From Chiloscyllium plagiosum (lineage: Eukaryota), in NCBI RefSeq assembly GCF_004010195.1, contig NC_057718.1, forward strand, positions 42,630,902 to 42,694,901: a stretch of DNA of 64,000 nucleotides, in the 5' to 3' direction. A program made the position numbers and the translations under genes. Below, piece by piece: positions 4,052-64,000 of the stretch (its first letter is position 1; every line of letters starts with the position of its first letter). The notes under the pieces are model-generated. The model was not told the origin of the DNA. It was given only the letters and a program-made list of their open reading frames with translations, and ran no database searches.

Positions 4052-4170
4052 GGGACATTTTGTGGTACAGTGGTAGTGTTCCTTCCCATGGACCAGGAGG
4101 CTCAAGTTCAAGTTCCATCTGTTCCAGAGGTATGTAAGAACATCTCTAAACAGGTTGATTAGAAAAATAG
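4052..4170 (+). mobile_element. Short tRNA-derived SINE-like element; a second partial copy at ~4243-4310
   Basis: Box A-like tggtacagtggtag and box B-like agttcaagttcc. ggaccaggagg...gttca...ctg.tccag...aacatct.t.aacagg recurs at 4243-4310. Confidence 0.5.
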
Positions 4171-7499: not shown

Positions 7500-7850
7500 G
7501 CTAGACAATTGGAACATTTCAGCATACAACTTGATACTGTCCACACAGCCGAAACAATAGTAAAACGTTTAGAGAGAATACAGCGAAGATTCACTCTGGC
7601 ATTGTCTGCTCTGCAGCTATGCAAATGCAAAGAAATAATTTTAGAAATTAGAACAAGGACTACTAGAAGATGTGATTATCAGTGTTTTAAGACAATGGGA
7701 GGATGGTATGCAGAAGGATGTTTATATTGGCAGAAATTTCTAGAACAGGCTCATGGATGCAGGATCAACAGCAATAAGTTTAGAAGAGTGAGCAAGAATA
7801 AGTGGTGTAGAGAAAGTTTTAAAGTTGCAGAATTACTTTCAAAGTTTCTG
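7500..7850 (+). mobile_element. Very old CR1-like LINE relic
   Basis: Frame contains LERIQRRFT and downstream weak GHxxKI-like residues. Confidence 0.45.
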
Positions 7851-13694: not shown

Positions 13695-15521
13695 GCGAAA
13701 GTGAGGTCTGCGGATGCTGGAGATTAGAGTCAAAGAGCACAGCAGGTCAGGCAGCATCCGAGGAGCAGGAGAATCGACGTTTTGGGCAAAAGCCCTTCAT
13801 CAGGAATGAGGCTGAGCGCCGAGGCAGTGGTGAGATAAATGGGAAGGGGATGGGGCTGTGGGGAAGGTAACTGAGCGTGTGATAGGTAGATGGAGGTGGG
13901 GGTAATGGTGTTAGATCAGAGACAAGGATGGAGCAGATAGGTGGGAAGGAAAATGGACAGGTCATGAGGTGGTGCAAGTTGGAAGGTTGGAACTGGGATA
14001 AGATAGGGGGAGGGGAAATGAGGAAACTGGTGAAATCCACATTGATGCCGTAGGGTTGGAGGGTCCTGAGGCAGAAGATGAGTTCTTCCTCCAGGCGTCG
14101 GGTGGTTAGGGAGTGGCGATGGAGGAGTCCCAGGACCTGCATGTCCCTGGTGGAGTGGGAGGGGGAGTTAAAGTGTTCGGCCATGGGGCGGTGGGTTTGG
14201 TTGGTACCGGTGTCCCGGAGATGTTCTCTGAAGTGCTCTGCAAGTAGACGTCCTATCTCACCAAAATAGAGGACACCGCATCGGGAGCAACGGATATAGT
14301 AAATGACGTGTGGAAGTGCAGGTGTAACTTGATGGATGTGGAGAAGGCTCCTTTGGGGCCTTGGACGTAGGTGAGGGGGGAGGTGTGGGGCAGACTTTGC
14401 AATTGCTACGGTGGCAGAGGAAGTTGCCAGGAGGGGAGGGTATGTTGGTGGGGGCGCGTGGACCTGACAAGGGAGTCGCAGAGGGAATGGTTTTTACGGA
14501 AAGTGGAGAGGGGTGGGGAGGGAAATATGTCATTGGTGATAGGTGACAGAATGGGAGGATGATGCGATGTATACAGAGGTTGGTAGGGTGGAAGGTGAGG
14601 TCCAGAGAGGTTCTGTCCTTGTTGCAGTTGGAGGGGTGGAGTTCGAGAGCAGAGGTGCGGGTAGTGGATGAGATGCAGTGGGGGGGCATCATTAACCAAG
14701 TGGGTGGGGAAATTGCGGTCTTTAAAGAAGGAGGCCATCTGGTGTGTTCTGTGGTGGAACTGGTCCTCCTGGGAGCAGATGTGGCAGAGGTGAAGGAATT
14801 GGGAATAAGGGATAGCATTTTTACAGAAGGCAGAGTGGGAGAAGGTGTAATCTAGTTTGCTGTGGGAGTTGGTGGGTTTGTAGAAAATATCAGTGTAGAG
14901 TCAGTCACCATTGATAGAGATGAAGAGGTCCAGGAAGGGGAGGGAAGTGTCTGAGATGGTCCAGGTCAACTAAAGGTCAGGGTGGAATGTATTGGTGAAG
15001 TTGATGAACTGTTCACCCTCCTCATAGAAGCACGAGGTAGCGCCGATACAGTCGTCAATGTAGTGGAAGAAAAGGTGGGGAGTAGTGCTGGTGTAACTGC
15101 AGAAGATGGACTGTTCCACGTACCCGACAAAGAGACTGGCATAGCTGGGGTCCATGGCTACCCCTTTCATCTGGAGGAAGTGGAAGGATTCAAAGGAGAA
15201 ATTATTGAGGGTGAGGGCCAGTTCAGCCAAACGATTGTGTGTGTCAGTGGAAGGATACGAGTGGGGTCATCAGGTGAGGAAGAAATAGAGGGCTTGGAGG
15301 CCCTTGTCATGGCAGATTCATGGCGGAAGAGTTCATCAGCTTCTTCCTTTCGCACTCTCGACAACCCCAATCCCCCCCAGTCGCAGCCCCACCACCCTCC
15401 CATTTATCTCACCTTGGCTCACAGCCTCATCCATGATGAAGGGCTTTTGCCCAAAACATCGATTTACCTGCTCCTCGGATGCTGCCTGACTTGCTGTGCT
15501 TTTCCAGCACCACACTCTTGA
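13695..15521 (-). mobile_element. Penelope-like element (Neptune-type): RT, Cys-rich linker and GIY-YIG, 5'-truncated, ending in an inverted pLTR copy; 15-bp TSD
   Basis: RT motifs QMKGVAM and FFHYIDDC (14970-15230), linker CHRSNCKVC, and GIY-YIG remnant (AEHFNS...RRLEEELIF). 15390-15521 is an inverted copy of ~13730-13860. TSD ctgtatt(a/t)gaaagag at 13680-13694 and 15522-15536. Confidence 0.88.
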
Positions 15522-16548
15522 CTGTATTTGAAAGAGTCTCAAGATTGTGACTGGGACTGCACTCAGACATAGCGGGAAGGAAAGGAAGATTTTCTGAGGG
15601 CACGTGAGTGGCACAGGGGATATTTCATTGTAAGTACTTTCTCTGAATAGTCCATATGTTTCACTTTTCAACACCAATGGGAGGAAATGTAATTTTAGTC
15701 TCAATTACAAGACTGAAGATACTAGCCATCCTTGGCACGGCATGATGTTTTATGGTCCAAGCTATGAAGTGAGCAGCTTAATAGCCACATGCAAGCTATG
15801 GGACATTGGAAAGTGATTGTGGCTTTGGCAAGTAAAATTTCCAGACCCCAAACCAATGCTTTTGCCTCTCAGCATAAGGTTCATGTACCGTACTTTATGG
15901 TCACAGATATCTTTCACCTGTACACTGTCTCTTTCATGCTGTTTTTTTATTTCAAAAATATACTTTATTCATAAAATATTTTGATGGTCTCTACAGTTGG
16001 TCACCTGTCTCTTTCATGCTGTTTTTTTTATTTCAAAAATATACTTTATTCATAAAATATTTTGATGGTCTCTACAGTTGGTCATGCCATACATACACAA
16101 ACATTCCATTTCTTTGCATACAGAGATCAGAATTTATCATTTGTATGTACAGGTCTGTACGTTTATCAATCATATATCCATATATTTAGCTGAGGCGTCA
16201 GCAGAGCCCAAATGACTGCGTGGGCCCCCTGTTCTTCTTAGGCAGGCAGATGTTACATGGTGGTCTTTCCCCACTTCGCCATGGCGGCAGCTACCCCAAG
16301 CTTCAGCGTATCCTTCAGCACGTGGTCCTGGACCTTGGAATGTGCCAGTCTGCAACACTCAGTCGGGGTCAACTCCTTCAACTGGAAGATCAACAAACAT
16401 TCCATTTCTTTGCATATAGAGATCAGAATTTATCATTTGTATATACAAGTCTGTACATTTATCAATCACATATCCATATATTTAGCTGAGGTGTCAGCAG
16501 AGCCCAACTGACTGCGTGGGCCCCCTGTTCTTCTTAGGCAGGCAGATG

Positions 16549-19568: not shown

Positions 19569-21006
19569 TTACCAGTGTCTATTTTGCTGCTGGTCTTGCC
19601 TCTCTGGGGTAGCTATGTGCATCCCTGTGATGACGGCAAACTGCTGGACCTTCCCAGGGCTGAGGTAGCTGTCCGGCTCCACGCTGGGGCCATTTCCCCG
19701 CTCTGGTGTCTTCAGGTCGGGCGCAGGGTCCGCATAGTCCAGTTCTCTGTCCGACAGCGGGAATGTCACAGGACCACTGCTCCCAGTTACCTGGAGCTGT
19801 GTGGCGGTGGGTACCTCGTGGTTCTCCCCGGATGGGGGGAGGTCTTTACCCATCCCCTCAGAGGGATCATCTTTTCCTGTTTGGGTGGTGCTGCCCTCCT
19901 TTTTCCCCGCGGTACTCTGTCTCTTCCTCTGGTGACGACCCTCCTTACCATCCGAAGAGCTGCCTGTATCCTTGTGTAGGTGTCATTTCCCCCTTTTCCT
20001 GGGTGGCTTTGGGGGACTGGCGAGGTTTCCTCTTCCTGATTTTGACAGTAATCCAATCCTCTGCCTCCTTTGTTCCCTCCTCTTCCATTTCCTCCGTCTG
20101 TCTTGAAGGAGCTTAGATAGACTGCTGCGCCTCCCTGCTGTCTGCCGTCTGCTGCGTTCCAGCCTGCCCTTCCTTCTGGGCGCCACCATACACCGTTCCC
20201 ATGCTGTTTTGTGGTACCTTGCTGATCTTATGCAGTCCATGGCTCGTGCTGCCACCTCCGGCCATCTGTGCAAAGGTGGCGGCCCCTCGTCTTGGGCAGG
20301 TCTTGTACATGTGGCCTGCCTCTCCGCACAGATTACAGTTCTTGGCCTATTTACATTCCTTGGTCAGGTGGCTTTCCTGCTTGCAGTTTCGACAGACCTT
20401 ACAATCTGCCGCCATGTGGCCTGACCTCCCGCAGGTTCGGCACACTTTCGGCTGCCCTGTGTTTGTCAGGTAACCTCTGCTTCCTCCGATGGCAAAGCTG
20501 GAGGGTGGGTGGAGGATGTTCCCACTGGCATCGACCCTCAGGGTTACCCTGACCTCCTGCTTGCTGGTCCAGAACCCGAAAGGATCGACCACACCTGTGC
20601 TTTCTCCCTCGACCTGGACATATCTTCTCAGGAAGGTCAGGACATCCATTGCTGGGACATGGGTGTTGTACGTATGGATTGTAACAACCCGACCCCTCTG
20701 CGCAGGAAGCACACACAATGGGACTGCTGACAAGATGGAGAACAGAGGTTCCCCTTCCTTCTCCTTGAAGACCTTCAGGAGTTGTTTGCAATTCTTCACA
20801 CTCCTGAAGGTCACATCGAAATAGTCTGCCACAGGGAAATCCTGTAGGCAGTACACGTTCGCTGCTTCAAAGCCGCAGCACTCCAGCAAAATCTTCTTGA
20901 CAAACACCGTCCGATCAACCGGTGTACGCTCATCCACCTTCTTCACAGTCACCCTGACTGTGTTGCGAATGCCCTGGCCTGGGCTGTGAGCGGCTGCTGA
21001 GGCCAT
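19569..21006 (-). pseudogene. Tx1 ORF1 (RRM-like region plus three zinc knuckles), ZCCHC3-like
   Basis: ORF 20347-21069 reads ...VDPFGFWTS...HPPSSFAIGGSRGY...GQPKVCRTCGRSGHMAADCKVCRNCKQESHLTKEC. After an in-frame TAG it continues CNLCGEAGHMYKTCPR. Confidence 0.85.
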
Positions 21007-21332
21007 AGCTCTGAGGTTGGCTGGTACCTGAATTGGCGTTAGGCCGAAGCCATCATAAAGATCCACCAAGAGCAGGTCAGCACAACCAAACGAACCTCCA
21101 ACGTCCTATCATGGGCTGGTACCTGAATTGGCGTTAGGCCGAAGCCAGCATAAAGATCCACCAAGAGCAGGTCAGCACAACCAAACGAACCTCCAACGTC
21201 CTATCATGATCCAGCTATGATCTCCAGCAGCTCCGACGACTCGCAACACGACCCCCGTGGTATCTCCCCTGCCAGCACACATCCGCTGCGTTGAACCTGC
21301 AGCACTCGAGCAGAATCTCTTCCTCTGGTCCT

Positions 21333-21854: not shown

Positions 21855-22760
21855 TCAAGGTTTGTGTAATTATTTGTAGCTTGGGTGCCAGTTGTCGTAG
21901 TTGTGGGTATGTTTGCCAAGATGGGAAGTTGATTTGCAGATGTTTCATTCCCTCTCGAGGTGACATTTTCAGTGCTTTGGGGCCTCTTGTGAAGCACTGC
22001 TGTACTGTGTCCTCTGTAATTTATTTGGTTCCATTCCTGCTGCTTCCGGTTGCTGGTTCCAGTTGTTCGTTGTACTGGTCTGTATATTGGGTCTAAGTCT
22101 ATATGCTTGTTGATGGAGTTTGTGGATGAGTACCATGCTTCTAGGAATTCTTTGGCTGTCCTCTGTTTAGCTTGTCCTATGATCATTGTGTTGTCCGAGC
22201 TCAATTTGTGGTCCCAGTCATCTGTTTGTATGGCTACTAGGGACAGCTGGTCATGGTGTTTAGTGGCTAGTTGGTGTTCATGGTTCCAGATTGTTAGTTG
22301 TCTGCCTGTTTGCCTGATACATTGTTTCGAGCAATCTTTGCATGGAATCCTGTAAATTACATTAGTCTTGCACATGTTGGGTGTAGGGTCTTTTGTCCTG
22401 GTGAGTTGCTGTCTGAACGTGCCTGTTAGTTTATGGGCTGTCATGAGTCCCAGTGGTCGAAGATGTCTGGTTGTTAGTTCCAAGACGTTATTTTTGGAAG
22501 GTAGCATGGCTAGTGAGTTAGGTCATGGAGGTCCTCGTCATGCTGTTTGTCTGTTAGGCATCTGCAGATGAAGTTCCTGGAATATCCGTTCTTGGCAAAA
22601 ACTCTGTAGAGGTGTTCCTCTTCCCTTTGCAGGTCGGGTGTGCTGCTTTGCATTGTAGCCCTTTTGAGTAGGGTCCTAATGCAACGTCTCTTGTATGCGT
22701 TTGGGTGGTTGCTGTTGTAATTCAGGATCTGGTTGGTGTGTGTGTGACTTTCCAGTACAC
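21855..22760 (-). mobile_element. Penelope-like element (Penelope/Poseidon-type), RT C-terminus plus GIY-YIG
   Basis: NVIYRIPCKDCSKQCIRQTGRQL...HEHQLATK (ORF 21818-22507) and upstream KVTHTNQILNYNSNHPNAYKRRCIRTLLKRA. Degenerate hammerhead-like core at 21939-21972. Confidence 0.85.
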
Positions 22761-22856
22761 ATTCCTGATAAAGGACTTATGCCCAAAACATCGATTCTCC
22801 TGCTCCTCAAATGCTGCCTGACTTGCTGGGCTTTTCCGGCACCACACTGTTTGACT
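22761..22856 (+). mobile_element. Single pLTR arm of the Neptune-type PLE family
   Basis: cctgataaaggacttatgcccaaaacatcgattctcctgctcctc...gctgcctgac closely matches 15430-15521 and 61187-61270. Confidence 0.8.
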
Positions 22857-23024
22857 GCAGGACAACCCAGCCATCTATTTGGCTATTTGAAATTATTGAC
22901 GTTTGTATGAACGTTTGGATATTTCAAAAGTCTTCATGGACTCTGTTGAGTAGGGTTTGTTTATTCTTGTGTCCTCAGAATGTCTGTTTGATTGCTTGGT
23001 TTTCTTCTCATCAACAACGTTAGA

Positions 23025-24178: not shown

Positions 24179-25050
24179 AGAAATATTATGTATCCATATT
24201 TAATTGTATTCATAAAAATAGACACTGAAATTGAACTGACACTTTTCAGCATTTTCATTGCATAAATAGAATTCATACGTGTGTCACAAGGACTGTATTT
24301 TTGCAATTCACAACCTTGATTCATTCACTCATTTACTGACTCCTTTGTTGTGGGGTTAGGTCAGCTCATTTTATACAGCAAAGACACATGTTGTATCCTC
24401 TTATCAATTATTTTTATGAACAGTATTAGGTCAAGTAGATGGCAAATGACAAACAACAAACTCATTAAGAACGAGTGCCATTTTAGCAGAATTTCTTTTC
24501 TAACCTCATCAGTATCTGAATAATGTTAAATGACATCAGTATTCTGCAGGACATTCTGGTTTGGTAAACATTGTAACCTCTGGCATAAGACACAAAATAG
24601 GCTTTGATGTCTGACAGTGCAACTTCTGCAGATAATTGTTTAAGACAGCAATGCAGCAGCGTATCAGTTAAGACACTTGCCTCATAACCCATTAACCCAA
24701 GTTTGAGTCTATTGTCAATTGATGCCTCAGACCACAGTTCTGTAGTGATGAGCAGCTTTTATATAATTCTGAAAATATTTCTGTTTGGGACTATGTTTTA
24801 CACTAGAATATCTAGCTAGGAGATAATATGACAAGTGATAATTTCTTCTCTCTTAGAAACTGACTTGCTCGTGCAAAATAGCCCTCCACTTATACCCCAT
24901 TTACCACTAAGTTGACAGCAGCCTGTTCCCAGTCCTGTGCCTTTAACTGATAATAATAACTCATACTGGGATGATGTCAAATAAATTAATTTCACATCCC
25001 CCAGAAGCCATTGCTGAAGCTCTGCAATGCCCTGGTCAGTCTAAAATGAA

Positions 25051-25254
25051 TTAAAGCAAAATACTACAAATGCTGGAAATCTGAAATATACACAGGAACA
25101 CTGGAAAACAAAGCAGGTCTGGCAACATTCACGGAGAGGGAAATCATGTTAACATTTCAAATACAATATAGCTTAACTGAAGAAGAGCCTCACTGGACTC
25201 AAAATGTTAACTGTTTCTTTCTCCACTGATGCTGCTAGACTTGCTGAGTTTCAC
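25051..25254. mobile_element. Palindromic mini-PLE insertion (older family) with hammerhead-like core; 14-bp TSD
   Basis: Degenerate inverted arms. Core ctgaagaagagcctcactggactcaaaatgtta at 25177-25209. TSD cagtctaaaatgaa at 25037-25050 and 25255-25268. Confidence 0.75.
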
Positions 25255-26012
25255 CAGTCTAAAATGAAAACTGAATTAACCCCTAAAAGTTAATTATGTA
25301 GCCAGTGCTCAATATTTAGTTATAAGGAATAAGTTTATAATATGCTCAGCATCCTTAGCTTTGAAAAGTGACATCATAAAAGGTGATAAATCATCACACT
25401 TATACACTTATCAAAGTGTATAAAATAAACTAGATGAAGATAGTCAACTAAAATATTTCCACCTATAGATGTATACTAATGCAGCAAAAAAAGATAACAT
25501 AATTTGAACTAAGACAATGTACTCTTTTGGTATTCCAAAATAATGGAATAAAATGTGTTGAAGAATTCTGAGATCATTTTGTTGAAGAGTGAACTACCCC
25601 ATTCATTCGTCTTCTGTCCCAATGAAAAGTGCTTACTGCTCATGATGCATTCAAAATCTGTCATGTGGGTTAGGAGTTTAAATTGGAAAATATAAAGATT
25701 TTATTTTTCTTTTAAAATGGATAGTATAGAATCTTTGTAACAGAAGCTTTATTCATTGAAAGCATATGCACGAGGCAATTGTGGGGCAAGGATCACACCC
25801 ACGTGATATCTTTCTGCACACCGTATAATAATGTGAAATTACAAAATGAAGGAAATGCATTTGCCAGAAGTCAAATCGAAAAGGAATACATAGAATAGTA
25901 TTTGGTAGATCAGAGTAGTTTTAAAATAGTATTAGTTCTGCTATTTCTCCTTTGTGTCCTGCATTCAGACTGTTGGAATGAATGTCTCTTTCACTGCCAG
26001 CTCATCTTGTGG

Positions 26013-26335: not shown

Positions 26336-27489
26336 ACTTTTTTTTCTTTAACATTGTCCCATTCCCTCCTCATTTTTTTTTATAAAAAGCAAGTGACCCT
26401 CAAAATCCTTACCATATTCACCAAAATTACTTTTCAAAGGAAAACCTCCACTGTTTGTTCAGCATGCCCTAAGTAAAGGATAGCAATTCACATTGTGACA
26501 TGAAACTTAAGAACAGGCCATTCAGCCATGCAACCCCACTCCCTCTCTGCCCTATAATGCTTCTCTTTTTATATTAAATTAAAAGGACTTTATTTGAACT
26601 TGCCTATACTTTTTGCTGAGCTGCTGCTATCTGACGCCTTTCAATCCAATGAAATACTACTTACTCTCCTACCAACTGCATTTTCTCTACTCCTCCACAT
26701 TTACTTTTAGTTAGAAAAGTAGGGAGACACTACAGTGATGTAATGTTTGTGCCTTACACACTCCTTGACACCAAGCCCATGATAACCTGCTCTCCAGGGC
26801 AAGTGAAATGTACTTGTATTTCTTGTTAATGTTATAACCAAGGTTGGAGGAGTGTGCTGGCATTCCTAGTCCCACCATTCTTTGGTGACAACACCAATTT
26901 AAATGCTTTACCCTGGTACAGTTTGTCCAATTTTATACTTTGTTTAGAATAAAACAAATCATCAAGTTTCTAAAATTAATAATTATGTTGCTTATTAATT
27001 ATAAAACAATACTCATTTGACATACATGAAAATCAGAATGATACATAATTTGTAATGTAAAAGTATAATTATTTATCTTTTGAAATAACACCAACACCAG
27101 GAAAAACAGAAATGGGGTAAAAACAAGTTTTTTTTCTGCAGAGATGAAGTCTGGGGGAAAGAAATTGATAAATAATTGTTGGTTCTTGTATGAAAAAGGG
27201 ATAGATACGAAACGTTAAAAATGGCATTTAGCCAGTGACCTGGCACACACAGATGGGTGTCAGTAAATGCAGGAAGCTGTCTCTGGGCCCTGGATACATT
27301 TAGTTCAGGAAACACCGAGAAAAACTCTTTCAGAAGCTTTTCAAGAGAACAGCTGGATTTGTGTTATCAGACTGAACCCTCAAAAGTCCTTTCTCAGAAA
27401 CACAGAAGGTATGTTTGGCTATCTTCACTCTCAGCAGGCTGTACTCCAACAGATCTCAAACAATATCCAAATCAAAATCTAACTCCTAA

Positions 27490-28350
27490 CAGCCACAAAA
27501 ACAGAAATTACTCGAAAAGCTTAGCAGTTCAGACAGCATTTGTGGAGAAAAATCGGAGGTAACATTTCCGGTCAAATGAATCTTTCTCAGAACTGCTGGT
27601 AGCTAGGAAAATGTTGGTTTATATGCAGGTTGGGGGGACGGAGTAGGGAGTAATTGATAGATGGGGATAGAGCCCAAAGAGTGGACTGAGAAAGGTGTGG
27701 GTAATGATCTGGCCAGGAGGATAAATAACTGTCAGTGAGGACTGTTGGTGGCTAACAATCGATTGTGTGTAAAAGCAGACCATGTGATAACAAGGATATG
27801 GGTGGCACAGTAGCTCAGTGGTTAGCACTGCTGCCTCACAGCACCTGGGACCCGGGTTCAATTCTGTTCTCGGGCCACTGTCTGTGTGGAGTTTGCACGT
27901 TCTCCCCGTATCTGCGTGGGTTCTTCCGGGTGCTCCGGTTTCCTCCCACAATCCAAAGATGTGCGGATCAGGTGAATTGGTCATGCTATATTGCCCATAG
28001 TGTTGGGTGCATTAGTCAGGGGTAAAAATAGGGGAATGGGTCTGGGTGGGTTACTGTTCGGAGGGTTGGTGTGGACTTGTTGGGATGAAAGGCCTGTTTC
28101 TATACTATATGGAATCTAATCTAATCTAATCTAAGGCCTAAAGTATGGGGATTGGGGTAAGGACATGGGAGAGCTCAAACCTTAATTTTATTGGACTTGG
28201 CTGTAAGGTGAGTATCTGTGTTGAAGTGGCAGGCAACTGGAAGCTCAGGGTCTTTTTTGTAGACAGAATGTAGCTATTCTGCAAAGCGGTCACCCAATCT
28301 GCACTTTGTTTCCCCAGTGTAGAAGAGACCACATTGTGAGCAGCCATATA
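27490..28350 (-). mobile_element. Old PLE 3' fragment interrupted by an HE1 SINE
   Basis: Minus strand ~28270-28345 encodes CSQCGLFYTGETKCRLGDRFAE (GIY-YIG). pLTR with a degenerate hammerhead-like core at 27560-27590. Confidence 0.7.
27800..28134 (+). mobile_element. HE1-type SINE
   Basis: tRNA-like head, core gtggagtttgcacgttctccccg, and a (ctaat)n tail. Confidence 0.92.
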
Positions 28351-28391
28351 CCCAGCCAAGTAATATTCAGCAAATAGGTTCAGGGAATAGG

Positions 28392-28716
28392 CAGGACAAT
28401 GGCTCATTGGTTGGCAGTGCTGCCTCACAACATCAGGTTCCCAGGTTCGATTCCAGCCTTAGGTGACTGTGTGGAATTTGCACATTCTTCCTGTGTCTGT
28501 GTGGGTTTCTTCTGCATGCTCCAGTTTCCTCCCACAATCCAAAGATACACAGGTTAGATGGATTGCGCTGTAGTGTCCAGGGATATATAGGTTATTTAGG
28601 TTTGCCATGGTAAAAATGGGGATGAGGTGGGTCTGGGTGAGATGCTGTTTAGAGGGTCAGTGCGAACTCAATGTGACAAATGGGCTCGCAGTGCACTGTA
28701 GGGATTCTTTGATTCT
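28392..28716 (+). mobile_element. HE1-type SINE (older copy)
   Basis: Box B ggttcgattcc and core homologous to 27800-28134. Confidence 0.82.
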
Positions 28717-38000: not shown

Positions 38001-39586
38001 AATTGCTTTGATTTGAAGGAACAAATAACTTTTTTTTAACTTTTTTTATTAATGAATAATTTTCAATTATGGCATTTGCCTTTTTTTTGCAAAGAGTACA
38101 CTGTTCAATTATCCAGCTTGCTTTATTGAGACGGAATGCAATACTTCAAAGGGAAGTTATGGTTTCATTTCTAGTTGTCTTGATTTATTCACTGAAGTCT
38201 ACACCTGATTTAATTGTAGTATTGAGATGCTAGTAATTCAATATAACTTTGTAATAAAACCAAGTATGTCAAAGATTACCTTCAATGTACTTACGTTTTG
38301 CAATTGCAATTTGGAAAGGTGGTATGGCAGATCTAAATTCCTGTGGGAACTAAACCTCAGGAGCACTGAAGAAAATAGAAAGTTCAGTTAAAGCTATATT
38401 CCATACAGGGTCTACAGCAGTAGGTTAACTTCTCAGTTGATGTATAGTTGCTTAATGAAATACAGTCTCCAATGTAACAGTTGTAATTTATTAACTTTAT
38501 AAAACTGGTTAACAATGGCATGTCATCAAAAAATCAAATTGAAACAATCTTATAAAAGGTAAAAGCAAAGTTTTAAAATAGAATTATAGGTGTAAAGGGA
38601 ATACCATGCAGTTTTCTCCCCAACTACAAAAGTTGCATTCACATTAGATTATTGAAGTGAAACTCAAACAATATAAATAAATGATACAGCATTTGTATGG
38701 CTTTTTTAAAAATTTCACTAATAGTAAGAAATCAGAATTGGCATGTAATGATTTTTTTTAGAATGATGTCTTTTAATGATGGTATGACAGTGAACATGAT
38801 TAATATTTTGTGAAAGGGCTAGTCAACAGTGTGAACAAGGGGAAGCACTCTCCCTCCACATGTTTTATAATATGCAACTGAAGAAAAGCATTGTGTCTAC
38901 CATGAGGTAATATGATTGTGAAACCTTAATTCAGCATGAAACATGCGTGAACTGCTCACCTTGCCACTATGGTGTAAAAAATGTATTGGTATATTCCACT
39001 AAAATGAGTCAGTGATACATATGAAAATCTCTTTTGCAGATATTTTTAGAGGAAAAAAATCTGTAGTAAGGTCATGAGTTTGTTTGTTTCTTGGCTAGAG
39101 AAAATATTGCTTGCATCTAAAATAGAAATTAGTTTGCAGGTACTGCAGGATATAAACTATCAACATGAAACATTAATTTATAACATAATTTTTCCTCACC
39201 TCTGCCCATCCCCCATCAAGCAAATGTTAGCTGCGCCACTTGGTGTATTAAATTAGATTTTAAACAAAGAATATATTTAACAAATATTATACAATTAAAT
39301 CCTTACATAAGACATTTTTTTTCAGCTCTAAATCACTATTTTGTGAAATATAAGGGTCACATTATTATTAAGCATCATTTTGAGATCAGGTGGTAGTTTT
39401 TATGAACTGCGTGAGATTTAATTTAGTTTTGTTTTTAAAACAGTAAGTTTGGAAAATTTAATTTAAAATGGTACAATGCCTTGATTAAGCAGTGACAAGT
39501 TATCATTTCCCAAGCATTTAATAAAATAGAAAATGTTTTTCAGGAATGGAAAATATTTGCCTAGTAATCTGTTATGTTGTGCTTTA

Positions 39587-39790
39587 GGCAAAAGTGAGGA
39601 CTGCAGATGCTTGAGATTAGAGCCAAGATTAGATGGTGCTGGAAATGCACAGCAGGTCAGGCAGCATCCAAGGAGCAGGAAAATCAATGTTTCGTGTAGG
39701 AGCCCTTCCCGAGGCCCCTTCAGCCCTCATTCCTGATAAAGGGCTCATGCCCGAAACGTTGTTTTTCCTGCTCCTCGGATGCTGCCTGAC
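39587..39790. mobile_element. Palindromic mini-PLE insertion with hammerhead-like core; 18-bp TSD
   Basis: Inverted arms ~39655-39710 and ~39735-39793. Core ctgataaagggctcatgcccgaaacgtt at 39733-39760. TSD ctgttatgttgt(g/t)cttta at 39569-39586 and 39791-39808. Confidence 0.85.
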
Positions 39791-40277
39791 CTGTTATGTT
39801 GTTCTTTACACTGGGCCTTACTTTGTTCCTTTAATTGTGTGGCACCAGAAAATTTAGATTTTCTGATACATACCAAAATAAGATAATTAGATTTAACAGT
39901 TTTGACTGAAATAAACACTTCAAACCTAAAAGACAAATAGCTTTCTAGCCATTGGAATTTTTGTCTTGCCAGCCATTTCTTCAAATATGAATATGATGAA
40001 TTTAAATGTTGTATTTTCTTTCCAACATGCAAAGAATTAAGAAATTTGTTCTTTACAAAAAGATAAAACAGGCAGCAGTTTTTAAAAAAAGACTCAACTC
40101 TTTCAACTCTGCTAGCATATTATATTTTGGTTGACTGCTGGCCTTTTCATTACTAGGAAAAGTAATCACTTCCATTGGTGGGATATAGACTATCTACAGA
40201 AAATCGCTGTATGTTTTTGCTTTCACAACCCTACTTGTATCACATACTTTTCTTAGCTTTTTTTTTTCCTTTTTCAG

Positions 40278-40404: not shown

Positions 40405-42997
40405 GGCTGGTAGGTGTAGGGAATGCTGGATGACTAGAGAAATTGAGGTTTTGGTTAAGAAAAAGAAGGAAGCATATAGACAGGAGAGATCGCATGAATC
40501 CTTAGAAGAGTATAAAGGCAGTAGAAGTATACTTAAGAGGGAAATCAGGAGGACAAGAAGGGAATATGAGTTGGCTCTGGCAAATAGTGTTAAGGAGAAT
40601 CCAAAGGGATTTTATAAATACATTTGGGACAGAAGGGTAGCTCAGGAGAGAATAGGGCCCCTCAAAGATCAGCAAGGCAGCCTATGTGTGGAACCGCCAG
40701 AGGAGATTCTAAATGACTATTTTGCATCAGTGTTTACAGTGGAGAAGGACATGGAAGATATAGAATGTGGGGAAATAGATGGTGACATCTTGAAAAATGT
40801 CCATATTACAAAGGAGGAGGTGCTTGATGTCTTGAAATGTATAAAAGTAGATAAATCCTCAGGATCTGATCAAGTGTACCTTAAAACTCTGTGGTAAGCC
40901 ACGGAAGTGATTGCTGGGCCCCTTACTGAGATATTTGTATCATTGATAATCACAGGTGAAGTGCCAAAAGACTGGAGGTTGGTGACGTGGTGCCACTATT
41001 TAAGAAAGGTGGTAAGGAAAACCCAGGGAACTATAGACTGATGAGTCTGATATCAGGAGTGAGCAAGTTGTTGTAGGGAATCCTGAGGGGCAGGATTTAC
41101 ATTTATTTGGAAAGGCAAGGACTGGTTAGGAATAGTCAGCATGATTTTGTGCATGGGAAATCATGTCTCATGCACTTGATTGAGTTTTTTGAAGAAATCA
41201 CAAAGAGGACTGATGAGGGCAGAACGGTGGACGTGATCTGTTTGGACTTCAGTAAGGAGGTTGACAAAGTTCCTCATGGGAGACTGATTAGCAATGTTAG
41301 ATCTCATGGAAGACGGGAAGAACTAGCCATTTGGATACAGAACTGGCTTGAAGGTGGAAGACAGAGGATGGTGCTGGAGGGTTGCTTTTCAGACTGGAGG
41401 CCTGTGACCAGTGGTGTGCCACAAGGATTGGTGCTGGGTCCGCTTCTTCTCATCATTTATATAAATGATTTGGGTGTGAAAATAGGAGCTATAGTAAGTA
41501 AGTTTGCAGATGACACCAAAATTGGAGGTGTAGTGGACAGCAAAGAAGGTTACCTCAGATTACACAGAATCTTGATCAGATGGCCCAATGGGCAGAATAG
41601 TGGCAGATAGAGTTTAATTTAGGTAAGTATGAGGTGCTGCATTTTGGAAAAGTGAATCAGAGCAGGATTTGTACACTTACTGGGAAGGTCCTGGGGAGTG
41701 TTGTTGAACAAAGAAACCGTGGAGAGAAAGTTCATAGTTCCTTGTAAGTAGAATCACAGGTAGATAGGCATGCTTTCCTTTATTGGTCAGTGCATTGAGC
41801 ATAGGAGTTGAGAGGTCATGTTGTGGCCGTACAGGACGTTGGTTAGGCCACTTTTGGAATATTGTGTGCAGTTCTGGTCTCCTTTCTATTGGAAGGATGG
41901 TGTGAAACGTGAAAGGGTTCAGAAAAGATTTACAAGGATATTGCCAGGGTTGGAGGATTTGAGCTACAAGGAGAGGCTGAAAGTCTGGGGCTCTTTTCCC
42001 TGGAGTTTCGAAGGCTGAGGGGTTACCTTATAGAGGTTTATAAAATCATGTGGGGCATGGATAGTACAAATTGACAAGGTCTTTTCCATGGAGTGAGGGA
42101 GTCCATAACTAGAGGACATAGATTTACGGTGAGAGGGAAAGAATATAAGAGAGACCTAAGGAGCAACTTTTTCACAGAGATAGTGGTGCGTGTGTGGAAT
42201 GAGCTGCCAGAGGACGTGGTACAATTTTAGTATTTAGAGTCATAGAGATGTACAGCATAGAAATAGACCCTTCGTCCAACTTGTCCATGCCGACCAGATA
42301 TCCCAACCCAATCAAATCCCACCTGCCAACACCTGGCCCATAATCCCTCCAAATCCTTCCTATTCATATACCCCTCCAGGCGTCCTTTAAATGTTGCAAT
42401 TGTACTCACCTCCACTCCCTCTGGCAGCCCATTCCACACACGCACCACCCTCTGCCTGAAAAGATTGCTCCTTAAGTCTCTTTTAAATCCTTCCCCTCTC
42501 ACCCTAAAGCTATGCCCTCTAGTTCTAGACTCCCCCACCTCAGGGAAAAGACCTTACCTATTTACCCTATCCATGCCCCTCATGATTTTATAAACCTCTA
42601 TAAGATCACCCCTCAGCCTCCGACGCTTCAGGGAAAACAGCCCCAGCCTATTCAACCTCTCCCTATAGCTCAAATCCTCCAACCCTGGCATCATCCTTGT
42701 AAATCTTTTCTGAACACTTTCAATTTTCACAACAATCTTCCGATAGGAAGGAGACCAGAATTGCGTGCAATGTTCCAAAAGTGGCCTAGCCAATGTCCTG
42801 TACAGCTATAACGTGACCTCCCAACTCCTGTATTTAAAAGGTATCTGGATGGGTATATGAATAGAAAGGGTTTAGAGGATATGGGCCAAGTGCTGGCTAA
42901 TGGGACTAGGCTAGGTTAGGATATTTGGTCAGCATGGACGAGTTGGACCGAAGGATCTGATCCCGTGCTGTACATCTCTCTGACTCTGTGACTCTAT
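40405..42997 (+). mobile_element. CR1 (HER1-like) LINE, 5'-truncated, interrupted at 42237-42829
   Basis: ORFs 40430-40897, 41107-41610 (KFADDTK) and 41818-42018 (LEYCVQFWSP). (tgactc)n-type tail at ~42980. Confidence 0.93.
42237..42829 (-). mobile_element. CR1 3' fragment nested antisense in a same-family CR1; 7-bp TSD
   Basis: ORFs 42227-42538 and 42554-42793. gtattta occurs at 42230-42236 and 42830-42836. Confidence 0.88.
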
Positions 42998-46476: not shown

Positions 46477-46702
46477 TAAACAAAAAACTGAAAGAACTGC
46501 GAATGTTGGAAATCTGAAACAAAAATCTGAAATTGCTGAAAAATCTCAACAGGTTTGGCAGCGTCTTGGAGACAAATCAGAATTCACATTTTGGGTCCAG
46601 AACTCTGAAGAACGGTCACTGGACCTGAAATGTTACTTCTGATTTCTTTCTACAGATGCTGCCAGGCCTGCTGAGATCATTCAGATGTTTCTGTTTTTGT
46701 TT
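46477..46702. mobile_element. Palindromic mini-PLE insertion (older family) with hammerhead-like core
   Basis: Inverted arms. Core ctgaagaacggtcactggacctgaaatgtta at 46605-46635. Probable ~10-bp TSD cta(g/c)agttat. Confidence 0.72.
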
Positions 46703-54589: not shown

Positions 54590-56075
54590 GTATTCTAGCG
54601 AAGTTTGCCGATGATACAAAGTTAGGTGGCCAGGCAGGTAGTACTGAGGAAGTGGGGAGGCTGCAGAAAGATCGAGACAGTTTGGGAGAGTGGTCCAGGA
54701 AATGGCTGATGGAATTCAATGTGAGCAAATGCGAGGTCTTGCACTTTGGAAAAAAGAATACAAGCATGGACTACTTTCTAAACGGTGAGAAAATTCATAC
54801 AGCCAANNNNNNNNNNNNNNNNNNNNNNNNNNNNNNNNNNNNNNNNNNNNNNNNNNNNNNNNNNNNNNNNNNNNNNNNNNNNNNNNNNNNNNNNNNNNNN
54901 NNNNNNNNNNNNNNNNNNNNNNNNNNNNNNNNNNNNNNNNNNNNNNNNNNNNNNNNNNNNNNNNNNNNNNNNNNNNNNNNNNNNNNNNNNNNNNNNNNNN
55001 NNNNNNNNNNNNNNNNNNNNNNNNNNNNNNNNNNNNNNNNNNNNNNNNNNNNNNNNNNNNNNNNNNNNNNNNNNNNNNNNNNNNNNNNNNNNNNNNNNNN
55101 NNNNNNNNNNNNNNNNNNNNNNNNNNNNNNNNNNNNNNNNNNNNNNNNNNNNNNNNNNNNNNNNNNNNNNNNNNNNNNNNNNNNNNNNNNNNNNNNNNNN
55201 NNNNNNNNNNNNNNNNNNNNNNNNNNNNNNNNNNNNNNNNNNNNNNNNNNNNNNNNNNNNNNNNNNNNNNNNNNNNNNNNNNNNNNNNNNNNNNNNNNNN
55301 NNNNNNNNNNNNNNNNNNNNNNNNNNNNNNNNGAAAATTCATAAAGCCAAAGTACAAAGGGATCTGGGAGTGCTAGTTGAGGATTCTCTAAAGGTAAACA
55401 TGCAGGTTGAGTCCGTGATTAAGAAAGCGAATGCAATGTTGTCATTTACCTCAAGAGGGTTGGAATATAAAAGCACCGTTGTGCTACTTTATAAAGCTCT
55501 GGTTAGGCCCCATTTGGAGTACTGTGTCCAGTTTTGGTCCAGTTTTGGTCCCCACACCTCAGGAAGGACATACTGGCACTGGAGCTTGTCCAGCGGGGAT
55601 TCACACGAATGATCCCTGGAATGGTAGGTCTAACATACGAGGAACGCCTGAGGATCCTGGGATTGTATTCATTGTAGGTTAGAAGATTAAGGGGAGATCT
55701 AATAGAAACTTACAAGATAATACATGGCTTGGAAAGGGTGGACGCGAGGAAATTGTTTCCGTTAGGCGAGGAGACTAGGACCCGTGGACACAGCCTTAGA
55801 ATTAGAGGGGGTAAATTCAGAACAGAAATGCGGAGATATTTCTTCAGCCAGAGAGTGGTGGGCGTGTGGAATCCATTGCCGCAGTGTGCAGTGGAGGCCG
55901 GGACGCTAAATGTCTTCAAGGCAGAGATTGAAAAATTCTTGATGTCACAAGGAATTAAGGGCTACTGGGAGAATGCGGGTAAGTGGAGTTGAAATGCCCA
56001 TCAGCCATGATTGAATGGCGGAGTGGACTCGATGGACCGAATGGCCTTACTTCCACTCCTATGTCTTATGGTCTT
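54590..56075 (+). mobile_element. Young CR1 3' portion spanning the assembly gap
   Basis: AKFADDTKLGG...CEVLHFG, VRPHLEYCVQFWS, FFSQRVVGVWN, and tail atgtcttatggtctt. Confidence 0.92.
54807..55332. other. Assembly gap (526 N)
   Basis: Run of N. Confidence 1.
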
Positions 56076-59258: not shown

Positions 59259-61092
59259 CCTTCCCCCTTTAGAAAAAAATGAACCATCATGAAAAGATGG
59301 CTTAATTTTCTTTTTCTAATTCATAACCCCATTACAATGAAATACATAGGACATTAATCTAAGTTCATATTAATTTCTACAAGCATGTTTAACATAGGTA
59401 TCTGTTCGATCTTATCTATATCCATTAAATCCGCAATAACACATTCTTATGACTCGCAACATGTACAGTTTGTAAATTAGAAGTCTGTAACATAAAACTG
59501 CAACGAAATAGTCTCATATTCTTGACTTTAAATTGTTCCAAGACTTTAATAAGATGTGATCCATGTACGCAATTGTCTCTGACCTATTTTTCATCACATA
59601 AACATTAAGATATTGTAAGGCCAATACCAAACTCAATAATTCCTTTTCAATTGTAGAGTATTTTCTCTGGTGGATGTTGAGTTTCTTTGAAAGTAACCAA
59701 TTGGCCATTCAATTCCATCATCATCTTCCTGTGCAGTACAGTTTCAACTCCTATATCACTAGCATCGATCGCAGCTTTGCATGGTTTCAAAAGTGTGGTG
59801 TAGCTAAAACTGATAAAGTGTTAATACTGCTTTTAAGTTGTCAAATGCCTCCTGGCATTGTTCTGTCCACCAAAACTTTGTGCCCATCTTCAGTAAATCT
59901 GTTAGCGGTGCCACTACGCTACTGAAGTTTGGAACAAACTTCCAATAGAATCTGCATGGTCCCAAAAATCAAAGCACCTCTTTCTTCAGAGTTGGTTGTG
60001 GAAATTCCTCGATGGCCTTCGTCTTGACATTCCTTGTGGTAAACCTTCCATGACCAATGTTACGTCCCAAGAACATCACAGCTTATCACCAGTTTTACAT
60101 CTTTTAATCATTCAAAGAGCTCTGCCAACTGTACCATGTGATCTTTCCATGACTCACTAAAGATCCCTACATCATCCAGATAGACTGCACAGTTCGTTAA
60201 CCCAGCCACAGCTCTGATCCTGACTCTTTGGAATATAGCTGGTGCATTTTTCATTCCAAAGGGCATCACTTTAAAATGATATAGCCTATTTGAGGTTAAA
60301 ATTGCAGAGATTTATTTCACTTTCTCTGATAAAGGTACCTGACAATAACTACGCAGTAAGTCCAACTTTCTTCATACAGTTCTCCAATCTTGGTATTGGG
60401 TATGAATCTAATTTTGTTACAGCGTTGACCTTCCGATAGTTCTCACAAACTCATTGAGTCCCTTTAGGTTTGGGAACTAACACGATTAGCGAACTCCACT
60501 TGCTCTGACCCGGTTCGATAATATCTTTGTTGAGCATCACATCCACTTCTTTCTGGACCGATCTGGCTTTGAAAGAATTAAGTCCTTAGGGGTGTTGCTT
60601 TATTGGAACAGCATTCCTTACTTCTACCTCATGCATAATAATATTATTCCTCCCCATCTTATTCCTGCAGATGTGCTCATATTGCTGCAACAAACCTTTC
60701 AACTGGGTTCTTTGCTCCTGAGACAGAGAGTCCACTAACCTATCCTACTCCTCAAGGACTTCCTCATTGTTTACTATATTTTGAGGCACATCAAACTTGA
60801 CGACAACTGGATTTGATTCCTCACTTTGGCAGTAACAGTTTCTCCAGTTCTTTCTCTCTTATTATAATAAGGTTTCAACATATTCACATGACTTACCCGA
60901 TACAGTTTTTTCCTGTCCAGCATCTTTACCAAATAGTTTACCTGACTCAACTTTTTCACAATTTGATAGGGACCATTAAAGCTGGCTTTGAAATGATCTC
61001 CTACTACTAGTAGCAATACTAATGCATCATCCCCATAGGAAAACGTCCGAATTTCAGAGTTTTTATCTGCAACTTGCTTCATTCTATGCTGT

Positions 61093-61314
61093 GCTGAAAA
61101 TGTGTTGCTGGAAAAGCGCAGCAGGTCTGGCAGCATCCAAGGAACAGGAGAATCGACATTTCGGGCATAAGCCCTTCTTCGGGAAATTCCTGAAGAAGGG
61201 CTTATGCCCGAAACGTCGATTCTCCTGTTCCTTGGATGCTGCCTGACCTGCTGCGCTTTTCCAGCAACACATTTTCAGCTCTGATCTCCAGCATCTGCAG
61301 TCCTCACTTTATCC
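61093..61314. mobile_element. Young palindromic mini-PLE inserted in the Gypsy integrase region; 16-bp TSD
   Basis: 93-bp arms 61093-61185 and 61187-61279 with 3 mismatches, plus a 35-bp tail. TSD tcattctatgctgtgc at 61079-61094 and 61315-61330. Confidence 0.92.
61183..61225 (+). ncRNA. Minimal type I hammerhead ribozyme motif (PLE-type)
   Basis: CTGAAGA (61190-61196), stem II gggc-ttat-gccc, then GAAAC-GTC (predicted cleavage after 61217). Helix III is reduced to the palindrome ACGT. Confidence 0.75.
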
Positions 61315-64000
61315 TCATTCTATGCTGTGCCCTCTTCAGGTGCTGTTTAATTAACTCACCTCTGATATATAATCCAAGTGTGAGATCTCTGACCTTGGTC
61401 CTGTCAATTTCTCTCTAAATAATTTCAAAGGCTTTCTCACTTCATGTCAGAGTATTAACTCCAAGCAAGTAAACTGAGTAGATTCATTTTCGGACCTCTA
61501 ATGGCAAACAATAAAAATTGGATACTTTTTTCCCAATCATTCAGATAAGCTTGACAGTATGATCTCAACATGGTCTTTAGGGCCTGATGCCAACTTTCCA
61601 AAGCTCCTAGGATTCAGGATGATACGTACTTGATTTTTAAAGTGCTGTATACCTAACCTATTAATGACTACCTTAAACAGCCTAGCAGTAAAAGTAGACC
61701 CTAGGTCTGATTGAATCTCTCTGGGTAGCCCTTACTACGTGAAGAAAGCTACTAACTCCTCTACCACACTTTTTGTCTTAATACTTTGCAATGGAATTGC
61801 CTCTGGAAGTTGGTAGACACATCCATTATGGTTAGCAAGTACTGGTTCCCACTTTGTTTTCAGGAGGGGACCTACGCAATCATAACCCATGTGGAAGGTC
61901 CTTCGATTGCAGGAATTGGCAACAAAAGTGCTGGTTTTATTACTGCCTGTGGCTTACCTACCATTTGCATGTATGCCGCATATGGCAAAAGTTAACCATC
62001 TTTTTGTGCTTTCCAGACCAATAGAATTGCTTTTGTACCTGAGTCTGGGTCTTCCTTACACCTAGGTGACCTCCTACTGCCCATTTCTCCTCTGCACTGA
62101 TCTGCAGTGGTCTCCCTTTTCATCTTAGGATTCTAACTTTCAGATAATACCCTTCAGGAATATTACTTGACTCCTTTTCTGAATATGCATCAACATATAT
62201 ATCTTTTATTGTCTCGTCTTTCTGTTGTACCTCCATTAGCCTTTTCGGAGTAAACACTTCTGCCAGGCCCTCTGCCTGTTCAGGTGTTTCTGACACCCTT
62301 ACCTCAAACAGAGTATCCACTAACTGAACCTCAACTCCTTCATCTTTCTCTTTAGTTTTTGCTTCCTGCTGGGACTTATGATGTTGGGATCTTGTTACTA
62401 CACAGTATGGAAAAATTCCAGGGTATTTTTCGTTTAACTCCTCAGTTCCTTGGTCTTCCTTTGACTTCTCCACAAGAAGGGGTGTCGCTCCCACCTTGGA
62501 TCCCGCTAAATCGTTCCCAAAAACAAACTGTATTATTGGAACTGACACTCTGTTAATCACTCCCACTGTTACTTCCCCAGTCTTGAGTTGGCACTCCAAC
62601 CTGATCTTACATAGGGGAATGCTAAATTTCTGTCCATCTATCCCACAAATTATCACTCTCTCGGGTAACGGGTCAGGAAGAGTGAAAATATGTTCATCTC
62701 TTACTTTCAGTGACTGGTTAGATCCTGTGTCTCTCAAAATTATAACATGCCAACCGCACCCCCCATCCCCCCATCTTTCTGAGTAAACTTTACCCAGAGA
62801 GGTGAATTCTTTATCGAGATCAAGCAGTAACTCCATACCCAGCCCCTGCCTAGGCTGTGCACTCTTCTGTAGCTCCTCAGCTCTTCTTGGGGTTTCCTTC
62901 ACTACTTTCACGAATGCTGCTGGCTTAGCCTCTTCTACCACGTCTTTTCCCACAGTGCCTTTCTTTAACAGCCAGCATTGTGACTTTACGTGTCACATTT
63001 TACTACAATGGAAACACCTGAGGCCTTTCACCTCCTTTCCACCCCCTTGGGCTTCTTTTTAACCTGTGGTAATCAATTACCAGTGTGCTGTACTCTTTGT
63101 TTTGTACTATAAGATCTCCCCTTCTCCCAATTTCTATCCTTCACAAGATGAAATTCTTATCGGAAGCTAAACTTTGCCTTATGCACCAACGCATATTCAT
63201 CTGCCATCTCTGCTGCTCTTCTCACTTCTTGAACTTTCTGTTCATCCACATGAATTCTTAACATCTCTGGAAGTGAGTTTTTAAAGTCCTCCAGCAGAAT
63301 AATCTCTCTCAGAGCCTCATAGGTCTTATCCATTTTAAGGCCCGCACCCATCTGTGAAAATTACTGTGTTTAATTCTTTCGAACTTAATATAAATTTGAC
63401 CTGATTTCTTTTATGTTTTTGAACTGCTGTCTATACGCTTCTGGTACCAATTCATAAGCACTCAAAATAGCCTGCTTGACATCTTCATAATCTCTTGACC
63501 CCTTATCTGACAGTGCTGCAAATACAACACTAACTCTGCCTACCAGCTTAGTCTGAACTAACATTACCCACAAGTTCTCTGACCACTCCATCTGCCTAGC
63601 CAATTTTTCTAATCTTTCTCATCAAAGTGTGGCAGTGCTTTAACATATTTGTACATATCACTACCTTCTCTCTATATCTCCATCCTGTTAACTTGACCTT
63701 CCTGACTAAGACGCAACTTCTGAAGTTCAAACTCTCTCTCCTTTTCTCTTTCTTTTCTCTCCCTTTCTTCTCTCTCTCTCTCTTTGCTCAGCTAAGAACC
63801 TTCTCTCTTTTTTCCTCACTCTCTTTTTCCCTTTCTTTCCCTTACTTTTATCTTCTAACTCCATTTTCCTCAATTGTATTTTAAGTTTTTCTAACTCTAC
63901 TACACTTGTCTGTTTCTCTAACCCACACAAGTGCTTGACAAGCTCCCTTATAATTTCAGCTTTCCTTTTGCCCCTGGTTAGACCCAGTTCTAACCTTATT

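Follow-up and report, generated by a model that had tools for sequence, protein, structure and literature searches.

At 61 kb of the window, the whole 64-kb stretch of DNA that was analysed, lies an insert (61093-61314) in which a short end module, assigned below to a Penelope-like element (PLE), stands head to head with an inverted copy of itself. The left arm (61093-61185, minus strand, 93 nt) is the inverted, tail-less copy, a pseudo-LTR stub, and the palindromic part of the right arm (61187-61279, plus strand) is likewise 93 nt long. A single A at 61186 forms the centre. Contigs of the family show loose ends before 61186 and behind 61314/61315, and since family copies extend upstream from 61186, this A is counted as part of the plus arm. 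The direct copy spans 129 nt (61186-61314, plus strand) and starts 4 nt 5' of the hammerhead core. Its last 35 nt (61280-61314) are a tail found on this arm only, so the insert is not purely palindromic; the 3' end of the tail is common to hundreds of contigs per run. The unit is framed by a target-site duplication (TSD; 61079-61094 and 61315-61330, 16 of 16 identical), and the last 2 nt of the left repeat are common to the arm as microhomology. The TSD score of 16 compares with 2 of 992 random flank pairs from the window that score at least 12, the palindrome folds at -189.4 kcal/mol (z -24.7), and none of 200 shuffles was equally good; palindrome and TSD are therefore not due to chance. The 93-bp arms, 1-nt centre, three mismatches and 16-bp TSD given in an earlier sequence-only reading were measured as claimed, and its view of the unit as a retro-insertion agrees with the TSD that frames it. 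A MITE or DNA transposon was ruled out, since the inverted repeats do not reach both ends of the unit.

The arm mismatches lie at 61128, 61158 and 61181. Judged against other family copies, all three differences sit on the inverted arm, and one of them (61181 G>A) is the majority letter in four sequencing runs. With arms that are 97% alike, compared with 74-87% for its neighbours, the insert can be called young in this relative sense and no further. Its host is a decayed LTR-retrotransposon: the downstream side of the target (60774-61094, minus strand) is an integrase C-terminus with PF22938 at about 60870-60974, and the five codons of the TSD close the frame of the upstream flank and open that of the downstream flank. 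A contig of a related host copy in run X4 skips the insert, with a net difference of 235 nt (n=1). The integrase piece had no relatives at E<=0.001 among 190 candidates, so this search did not confirm the empty site at the protein level. Coding capacity had been denied to the insert, which is correct in effect, although a stop-free minus frame (60774-61274) crosses from the insert to the end of the host integrase, and 27 codons that start with an ATG at 61236 extend through the tail. Taken as a PLE N-terminus, the latter frame matched none of 272 proteins significantly (lowest E 3.5).

The plus arm carries a minimal type-I hammerhead (61186-61221). Its core (61190-61217) is intact, with CUGAAGA, one extra A, a 4-bp helix II (61198-61209) and GAAAC-GUC, and cleavage is predicted after 61217. 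ACGU at 61213-61216 supplies the palindromic positions 15.2-16.2 for a dimer helix III. The mirror core on the minus strand (61155-61182) has two substitutions, as had been seen before; they are U4>C and C15.2>U. The pattern CUGAnGA...GAAA...UH with a helix II is present on the plus arm only. Helix I is weak (2 bp, U.U and 1 bp, compared with 4-5 bp expected for the class), with a pair probability of about 0.02 in the arm alone, and a second palindrome spans the cut site and competes for dimer pairing. Searching Rfam gave no hammerhead hit; the six matches at E<=5 were miRNA-type hairpins far below gathering, and a miRNA reading was rejected because these are generic hairpin matches.

Where about ten related motifs had been noticed, 13 end-module arms were counted in the window (12 by BLAST at E<=1e-3, one weaker). 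Core letters are retained in two of the 10 arms tested, helix II is also retained only in the plus arm of the palindrome locus, and the remaining three of the 13 arms break off within the motif. The starts of the arms are concentrated around the 5' edge of the hammerhead, 9 of the 13 lying within about -12 to +20 nt of its core. Both arms of the 61-kb insert span the cut site; the template RNA was therefore uncleaved at the hammerhead. In folding computations, helix II has a probability of 0.91-0.94 in the arm alone, whereas the full palindrome gives 0.0 for either strand; the hammerhead is thus predicted to be unable to fold within the palindrome. In a read-through transcript of either strand, the antisense would be made first and would capture the ribozyme. 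The folding result bears out the earlier proposal that such a transcript folds back and buries the ribozyme; the "built-in off switch" attached to it is without support as a function and is a consequence of the head-to-head geometry. A dsRNA source is a plausible candidate role of the fold-back, and the accessible text of PMC3681739 already reports Penelope inverted repeats as such a source.

Four further head-to-head pairs lie within the window, three of them flanked by TSDs. With the 61-kb locus included, four of the five pairs carry TSDs of 14-18 bp and all five differ in their centre. Pair B (39569-39808) has the same family and layout as the 61-kb insert, a 17/18 TSD, an asymmetric centre and a tail-less arm that is shorter at its 3' end. 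A second end-module family makes up pairs E (25037-25268, 14/14 TSD) and H (46480-46702), both head to head; H has no TSD above chance (score 7), and none was found for arm D of the window. In B, E and H the arms are not nested, the extra centre sequence sitting on the tail-less arm.

Pair C (13680-15536, 14/15 TSD) consists of a tailed arm (13698-13858, minus strand) and an inverted tail-less arm (15384-15523, plus strand), and carries a 1.3-kb ORF remnant (13978-15317, minus strand) with a PLE RT, a CX4CxxC linker and GIY-YIG. The remnant is 75% like a carpet-shark PLE-type protein and is followed by the tailed arm; the arm is 78-86% like that of the 61-kb locus, which itself is without an ORF body. 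The end module lies 3' of RT and GIY-YIG on the same strand, which demonstrates its link to a PLE, and the PLE origin suggested by the sequence-only reading is upheld both by this link and by the match of the layout to published PLE insertions. Read from motifs, C and its relatives have the linker and two cysteines in the GIY-YIG core, which makes C a candidate for the Neptune/Nematis clade, whose marks are a CX2-5CxxC linker before GIY-YIG and a CCHH motif. The autonomous partner of the exact subfamily was not found, and the upstream sequence of that subfamily in the runs differs from that of C.

The same anatomy was demonstrated in unrelated families from metagenomes. A set of 33 loci was reduced to 18 that could be assessed, five being dropped as apparent chance hits, four as repeats of another locus and six for want of flank. 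Twelve of the 18 show the anatomy of the 61-kb insert and six do not fit the layout. Direct-repeat scores of at least 10 were reached by 13 of the 18 loci and by 10 of 306 mismatched flank pairs, and at 12 of those 13 one repeat directly abuts its arm while the other lies 44-70 nt past the end of the second arm. In total, 13 loci have 19 nt of microhomology at the tail-less end (P 1e-5 to 2.5e-3; no anchor was obtained for C, E and L030). Centres differ within families and are often near-symmetric, and in L005, L022 and L023 the tail-less arm holds extra centre sequence, as read by eye. None of the 33 loci belongs to the 61-kb family (arm scores at most 22 of 128), and the exact family pattern had no locus in viral genome contigs and none in prokaryote genome contigs.

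Each DNA sequencing run holds some 9x10^4 contigs that match the 61-kb stretch, mostly the element, in line with the very large genomic load that had been suggested. Many single-locus centre joints occur in three DNA runs. Two centres 1-2 nt shorter than the 61-kb centre recur in 11-18 contigs per run (18/15, 11/14 and 12/11 in X2, X4 and X11, respectively), with a summed depth of 1.2-18 thousand compared with at most 505 for the other joints listed. We read these as a truncation hotspot; an amplified subfamily or detection bias are the alternatives. No RNA dataset is among the matches listed for the 61-kb stretch. RNA run X21 has reads of the family in either orientation, but none of them can be placed at the 61-kb locus, and no pile-up of their starts or ends was seen in this polyA single-cell run, which is ill-suited to the cleavage question.

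It is very probable that the 61-kb hairpin is a severely 5'-truncated insertion of an endonuclease-bearing PLE, in which nothing but the hammerhead-plus-tail end module was copied, first in a tailed and again in an inverted, tail-less version, into a 16-bp staggered break in a dead LTR-retrotransposon pol, and that its palindrome was made at integration and is not a replicating unit. Published insertions of such elements have an adjacent inverted 5'-truncated copy, a tail of 30-40 bp at one end and a TSD (accessible text of PMC8557442 and PMC3846280). The hairpin is thus genuine but unremarkable, with a layout that has been described for PLEs before and that recurs at many places in this shark-like genome. 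Points against this reading are the two shorter centres that recur in the runs, the want of a clear TSD at H, the six metagenome loci that do not fit, the upstream sequence of the exact subfamily, which differs from that of C, and the Poseidon-clade origin of the protein studied in vitro, C having a Neptune/Nematis-type linker.

As to the mechanism, we lean slightly towards nicking and priming on two strands. A PLE protein, probably a dimer, would nick both strands of the target and use each 3'-OH to prime a cDNA, the first starting at the tail end and the second about 35 nt further upstream. Both cDNAs would stop at the hammerhead 5' edge and then be joined, the ribozyme probably being a passenger. 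A PLE protein has been reported to cleave and extend both strands in vitro, with two RT start sites flanking the tail and with uncleaved RNA (PMC11167929, accessible text). At six loci (B, E, H, L005, L022 and L023) each arm has sequence that the other lacks, as expected from two cDNAs; later deletion at palindrome centres could also yield such arms, which would count against a two-cDNA origin. The spacer lengths of 24 metagenome loci agree with a uniform model (P 0.46) and reject independent stops of two cDNAs (P 0.002), short spacers being commoner than under independent stops. This implies either a coupling of the two arm ends or a common stop site. A tentative extension is that the stubs are non-random: a short RNA, or an mRNA 5' end, at the front edge of the hammerhead would be primed twice at one break, and both cDNAs would run off the same RNA end. 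This is suggested by the arm starts near the core, the near-identical centres that recur in two organisms and the enrichment of short spacers.

A single nucleic acid could also have formed the mirror arm by self-priming or snap-back, with endonuclease resolution stripping the tail from one end. This keeps the identity as a PLE stub, so its likelihood concerns the mechanism and overlaps the identity claim above; we regard it as possible and rather doubtful. Snap-back has been proposed for palindromes at head-to-head PLE junctions (PMC3846280) and the tail has been attributed to endonuclease-mediated resolution (PMC8557442), both in the accessible text, and the near-symmetric centres, uniform spacer lengths and symmetry of the 61-kb locus to within 1 nt suit it. 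However, snap-back of a tailed cDNA needs a short arm wholly inside the long arm, which fails at the six loci with non-nested arms, and the extension of both strands in vitro also speaks against it.

The sequence-only reading had favoured an independently replicating mini family, that is, a palindrome transcribed and re-inserted as a non-autonomous unit whose fold-back regulates the ribozyme. This now appears improbable. In its favour are the trans mobilisation of other sequence of which PLE end repeats are capable (PMC3846280, accessible text) and the recurrence of near-identical centres, seen in three DNA runs from two organisms as well as in 2 of 31 RNA reads at 61184. Yet the recurring centres are three variants and not one, at about 0.01-0.15% of the family's summed depth (depth being no copy number), unrelated families show the same layout with locus-specific centres, and a hairpin of -189 kcal/mol would be a poor RT template. 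Unique centres in every copy, named beforehand as evidence against such a family, were largely what was found (all five window pairs, the runs and the metagenome loci), apart from the two shorter centres that recur in each run. Two separate insertions, a later local inversion or duplication, or an assembly fold-back artefact are very improbable sources, for although PLEs tend to insert beside existing copies (PMC6765202, accessible text) and no contig among those listed bridges either border of the insert, a single TSD frames the whole unit with its one-sided tail, the arms differ at three sites and are therefore not a fold-back copy, and the pattern recurs at four window loci and 12 metagenome loci.

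The single locus, a dead stub within an equally dead retrotransposon, matters little. Taken together, such loci offer a large natural sample in which to study the integration of PLEs and the origin of their inverted ends, and the TSD, one-sided tail, microhomology of 1-4 nt and non-nested arms are expected traces of two-strand priming. If the short-template reading is true, symmetric ribozyme palindromes would be the standard product of a dedicated route that leaves very many hairpins in shark genomes, and the genome would be an in vivo record of two-strand priming. These insertions suggest a far larger stock of minimal hammerhead motifs and long hairpins in shark genomes than has been counted in other vertebrates, with consequences for the annotation of repeats and for false calls of miRNAs or MITEs. 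No account of shark PLE hammerheads or of twin priming for PLE inversions was found in the literature, with thin coverage of subscription papers and Repbase; the supplements of PMC4209133 and PMC11167929 may list some.

Among known systems, the insertion units of endonuclease-bearing PLEs (Arkhipova 2013, PMC3846280; Craig 2021, PMC8557442; accessible text) share the inverted 5'-truncated copy at the 5' end, the head-to-head junction, the tail and the TSD. Here, both copies are reduced to the last 93-129 nt with no ORF body left, and the TSD is 14-18 bp compared with 8-10 bp in the rotifer examples. The PAc Poseidon element of Anolis (Frangieh 2024, PMC11167929) is alike in a tail set by two RT starts, a hammerhead upstream of the tail and the copying of uncleaved RNA. 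The protein studied in vitro is of the Poseidon clade, whereas the ORF linked here in pair C has the CX2-5CxxC linker of Neptune/Nematis; the accessible text of that study gives no explanation of the inverted arm. Non-LTR retrozymes (10.64898/2026.07.22.740005) are also small, non-coding, PLE-derived and equipped with a type-I hammerhead, but they are head-to-tail tandem units, in contrast to the head-to-head pair with tail and TSD described here; a retrozyme was ruled out, as there is no head-to-tail tandem unit at the locus. The minimal hammerheads of metazoan PLEs (Cervera and De la Pena 2014, PMC4209133), in an accessible text that does not name sharks, are alike in being type I without helix III, in the palindromic 15.2-16.2, and in the unpaired base before helix II and G10.1-C11.1. 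They differ from the present motif in its 4-bp helix II, a helix I of only 2+1 bp with U.U, and the second palindrome across the cut site. Opposite-strand pairs about 100-700 bp apart were reported there, and both there and here most motifs stand alone or form opposite-strand pairs that derive from truncated PLEs. The load here looks larger than the 4,000-9,000 motifs given in that text for coelacanth and Xenopus.

The insert at 61079-61330 is real, and it is a stub-sized Penelope-like element (PLE) insertion of an already known kind, with an inverted arm, a tail, a target-site duplication (TSD) and a minimal hammerhead. The palindrome was reproduced as the sequence-only reading had described it, with arms at 61093-61185 and 61187-61279 that differ at three positions (61128, 61158 and 61181), a 1-nt centre at 61186, and a 16-bp direct repeat (61079-61094 and 61315-61330, 16/16 matches). 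That description of palindrome plus repeat had missed a one-sided tail of 35 nt without a mirror (61280-61314), which separates the right arm from the right repeat. The palindrome has a predicted fold of -189.4 kcal/mol (z -24.7). An ATG in the arm at 61236 starts 27 codons running through the tail (61236-61316, plus strand); a comparison of this frame with 272 proteins gave no significant match (best E 3.5). The first 12-22 ORF codons have been reported inside PLE end repeats (PMC3846280).

The insert breaks up the decayed minus-strand pol of an LTR retrotransposon. The PF22938 integrase C-terminal domain was found in the downstream flank, and five codons of the duplicated 16-mer are both the end of the upstream-flank frame and the start of the downstream-flank frame. 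A related host copy without the insert is present in one contig of DNA run X4, with a net 235 nt skipped. The LTR-retrotransposon coding region (59400-64000, minus strand) contains many stops, and its translation places integrase-like sequence upstream of reverse transcriptase (RT)-like sequence.

The 64-kb window contains 13 arms, or end-module copies, from two families, and ten of these form five head-to-head pairs: the insert, B (39569-39808), C (13680-15536, with PLE coding remnants), E (25037-25268) and H (46480-46702). Duplications of 14-18 bp flank four of the five pairs (scores 16, 15, 12 and 14, where 12 was reached by 2 of 992 random pairs); the score of H is 7. The tail is confined to one arm in every pair, and each centre is distinct. 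In pair C, PLE coding remnants (13978-15317) precede the tailed arm and comprise reverse transcriptase, the CX4CxxC linker and the GIY-YIG endonuclease. They share 74-75% identity with a protein of Chiloscyllium punctatum, and sharks and rays supply their best named relatives, which makes a carpet shark the probable host. The linker hints at Neptune/Nematis, as these are described in PMC8557442.

Single arms were also observed. Arm D (22761-22857, plus strand) is tail-less, starts about 5 nt before the core and adjoins a PLE of another type in head-to-head orientation (minus strand; region 21860-22857); this PLE is 5'-truncated and has an RT end, a GIY-YIG domain without the linker motif and its own end module near 21900-21980. 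If this was a single event, it would have joined two different RNAs; a TSD around the two was sought and none was found. Arm G (second family, minus strand; region 27480-28357) has a GIY-YIG remnant upstream at 28208-28357, and its region is broken by repeat copies at 27807-27960 and 28396-28546 that we take to be SINE-like. Elsewhere, a 238-bp inverted pair (41982-42649; 84% complementary, 192 nt apart) adjoins RT remnants at 41077-41610 and presumably represents the 3' ends of two oppositely oriented LINEs. A 252-aa frame (20347-21105, minus strand) contains a zinc knuckle besides two ZCCHC3-like RNA-binding domains and is probably a LINE ORF1 remnant. Long ORFs spanning the assembly gap at 54807-55332 (526 N) are artefacts.

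Two head-to-head hammerhead cores were also found at 33 metagenome loci, none of them from the family of the insert; removal of five apparent chance matches and four repeats left 24, with spacers of 4-30 nt that vary within families. A direct repeat score of at least 10 was obtained for 13 of the 18 loci with both flanks, versus 10 of 306 mismatched pairs. In 12 of these 13, the repeat measures 11-18 bp, directly adjoins one arm and lies 44-70 nt past the other. Microhomology at the tail-less end totals 19 nt over 13 anchorable loci (P 1e-5 to 2.5e-3). This anatomy is therefore what PLE ends with a hammerhead produce in general. At two loci, L004 and L013, parts of the hammerhead close to the junction are internally repeated in short tandem duplications, which suggests that RT slipped on this motif.

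The insert shows a 16-bp staggered break and two outward-pointing end-module copies, one with the tail. Each nicked strand would have served as primer for a separate cDNA, started at the tail end on one strand and about 35 nt upstream on the other. Such priming would match in vitro work on a PLE (PMC11167929), in which both strands were extended and RT began at two sites. In a published alternative, self-priming followed by endonuclease trimming makes the inverted arm (PMC3846280). However, at six loci the tail-less arm carries extra centre sequence and neither arm contains the other (metagenome cases judged by eye), which simple snap-back cannot yield, barring later centre deletion. Independent random stops are rejected by the spacer lengths (P 0.002), and 9 of the 13 window arms begin about -12 to +20 nt from the core (by eye). 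A shared stop at the front edge of the hammerhead, where either the RNA begins or RT is blocked, would explain the near-symmetric insert as well as the centres that recur in the sequencing runs. Start-site clustering and two-strand priming, taken jointly, form a tentative reading, and they are what remains testable from this class of insert. A separately replicating hairpin, as initially proposed, is very improbable, since centres differ in all five window pairs and vary within metagenome families.

Sequencing runs were matched at 88% likeness to the window stretch. Three DNA runs from two organisms gave 89,884, 92,504 and 86,299 matching contigs, and summed depth, which is not copy number, reached about 2x10^7 in the arm, compared with 10^3-10^5 for the flanks. 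In that sense, the large genomic load anticipated from the window holds, and the repeat is very abundant. In each run, the element gives way to unrelated sequence at 61314/61315 in hundreds of contigs, marking a shared tail end, and 366-403 contigs run on upstream of 61186 in natural family sequence. Among the joints listed, those skipping the centre are many and different, with 1-2 contigs each. Centres shorter than that of the insert by 1 or 2 nt recur (11-18 contigs in each run), at a depth far above the other joints listed, and run against a reading of one-off integrations. About 2% of a polyA single-cell RNA run was sampled, giving 2,809 reads of the family, with both orientations represented; 97% of them continue into unlike sequence, and no pile-up of read starts or ends was found in this sample.

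The plus arm has a complete minimal type-I core, in which one additional base precedes a helix II of 4 bp, together with an ACGU palindrome and a predicted cut after 61217; the mirror carries two substitutions (U4>C and C15.2>U). The plus arm is the only one of ten arms tested to retain both core and helix II. Pairing in its helix I is weak (2 bp, U.U, 1 bp), and an Rfam search did not report a hammerhead. The predicted probability of helix II is 0.91-0.94 in the isolated arm versus 0.0 in the full palindrome on both strands. In a two-copy model, the ACGU dimer reaches -18.9 kcal/mol without helix I and is weaker than pairing through a palindrome that spans the cut site (-21.9 kcal/mol). About 30 nt of sequence upstream of the predicted cut are present in both arms, and therefore the copied RNA was uncleaved. 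Because head-to-head geometry places an antisense arm first in either transcript, silencing of the ribozyme would require no selection.

Published minimal PLE hammerheads are described as inactive as monomers and of low activity as dimers (PMC4209133), and an Anolis PLE hammerhead as cleaving only with its own protein (PMC11167929). Generation of siRNAs from Penelope inverted repeats has also been reported (PMC3681739). A retrozyme identity was rejected, as retrozymes are described as tandem units (10.64898/2026.07.22.740005) whereas the insert is not tandem. Minimal hammerhead pairs on opposite strands, 100-700 bp apart, were noted in 2014 (PMC4209133), and the typical PLE layout is described as an inverted 5'-truncated copy beside the 5' end, with a 30-40 bp tail at one end (PMC8557442, PMC3846280, PMC8969392, PMC2377424).
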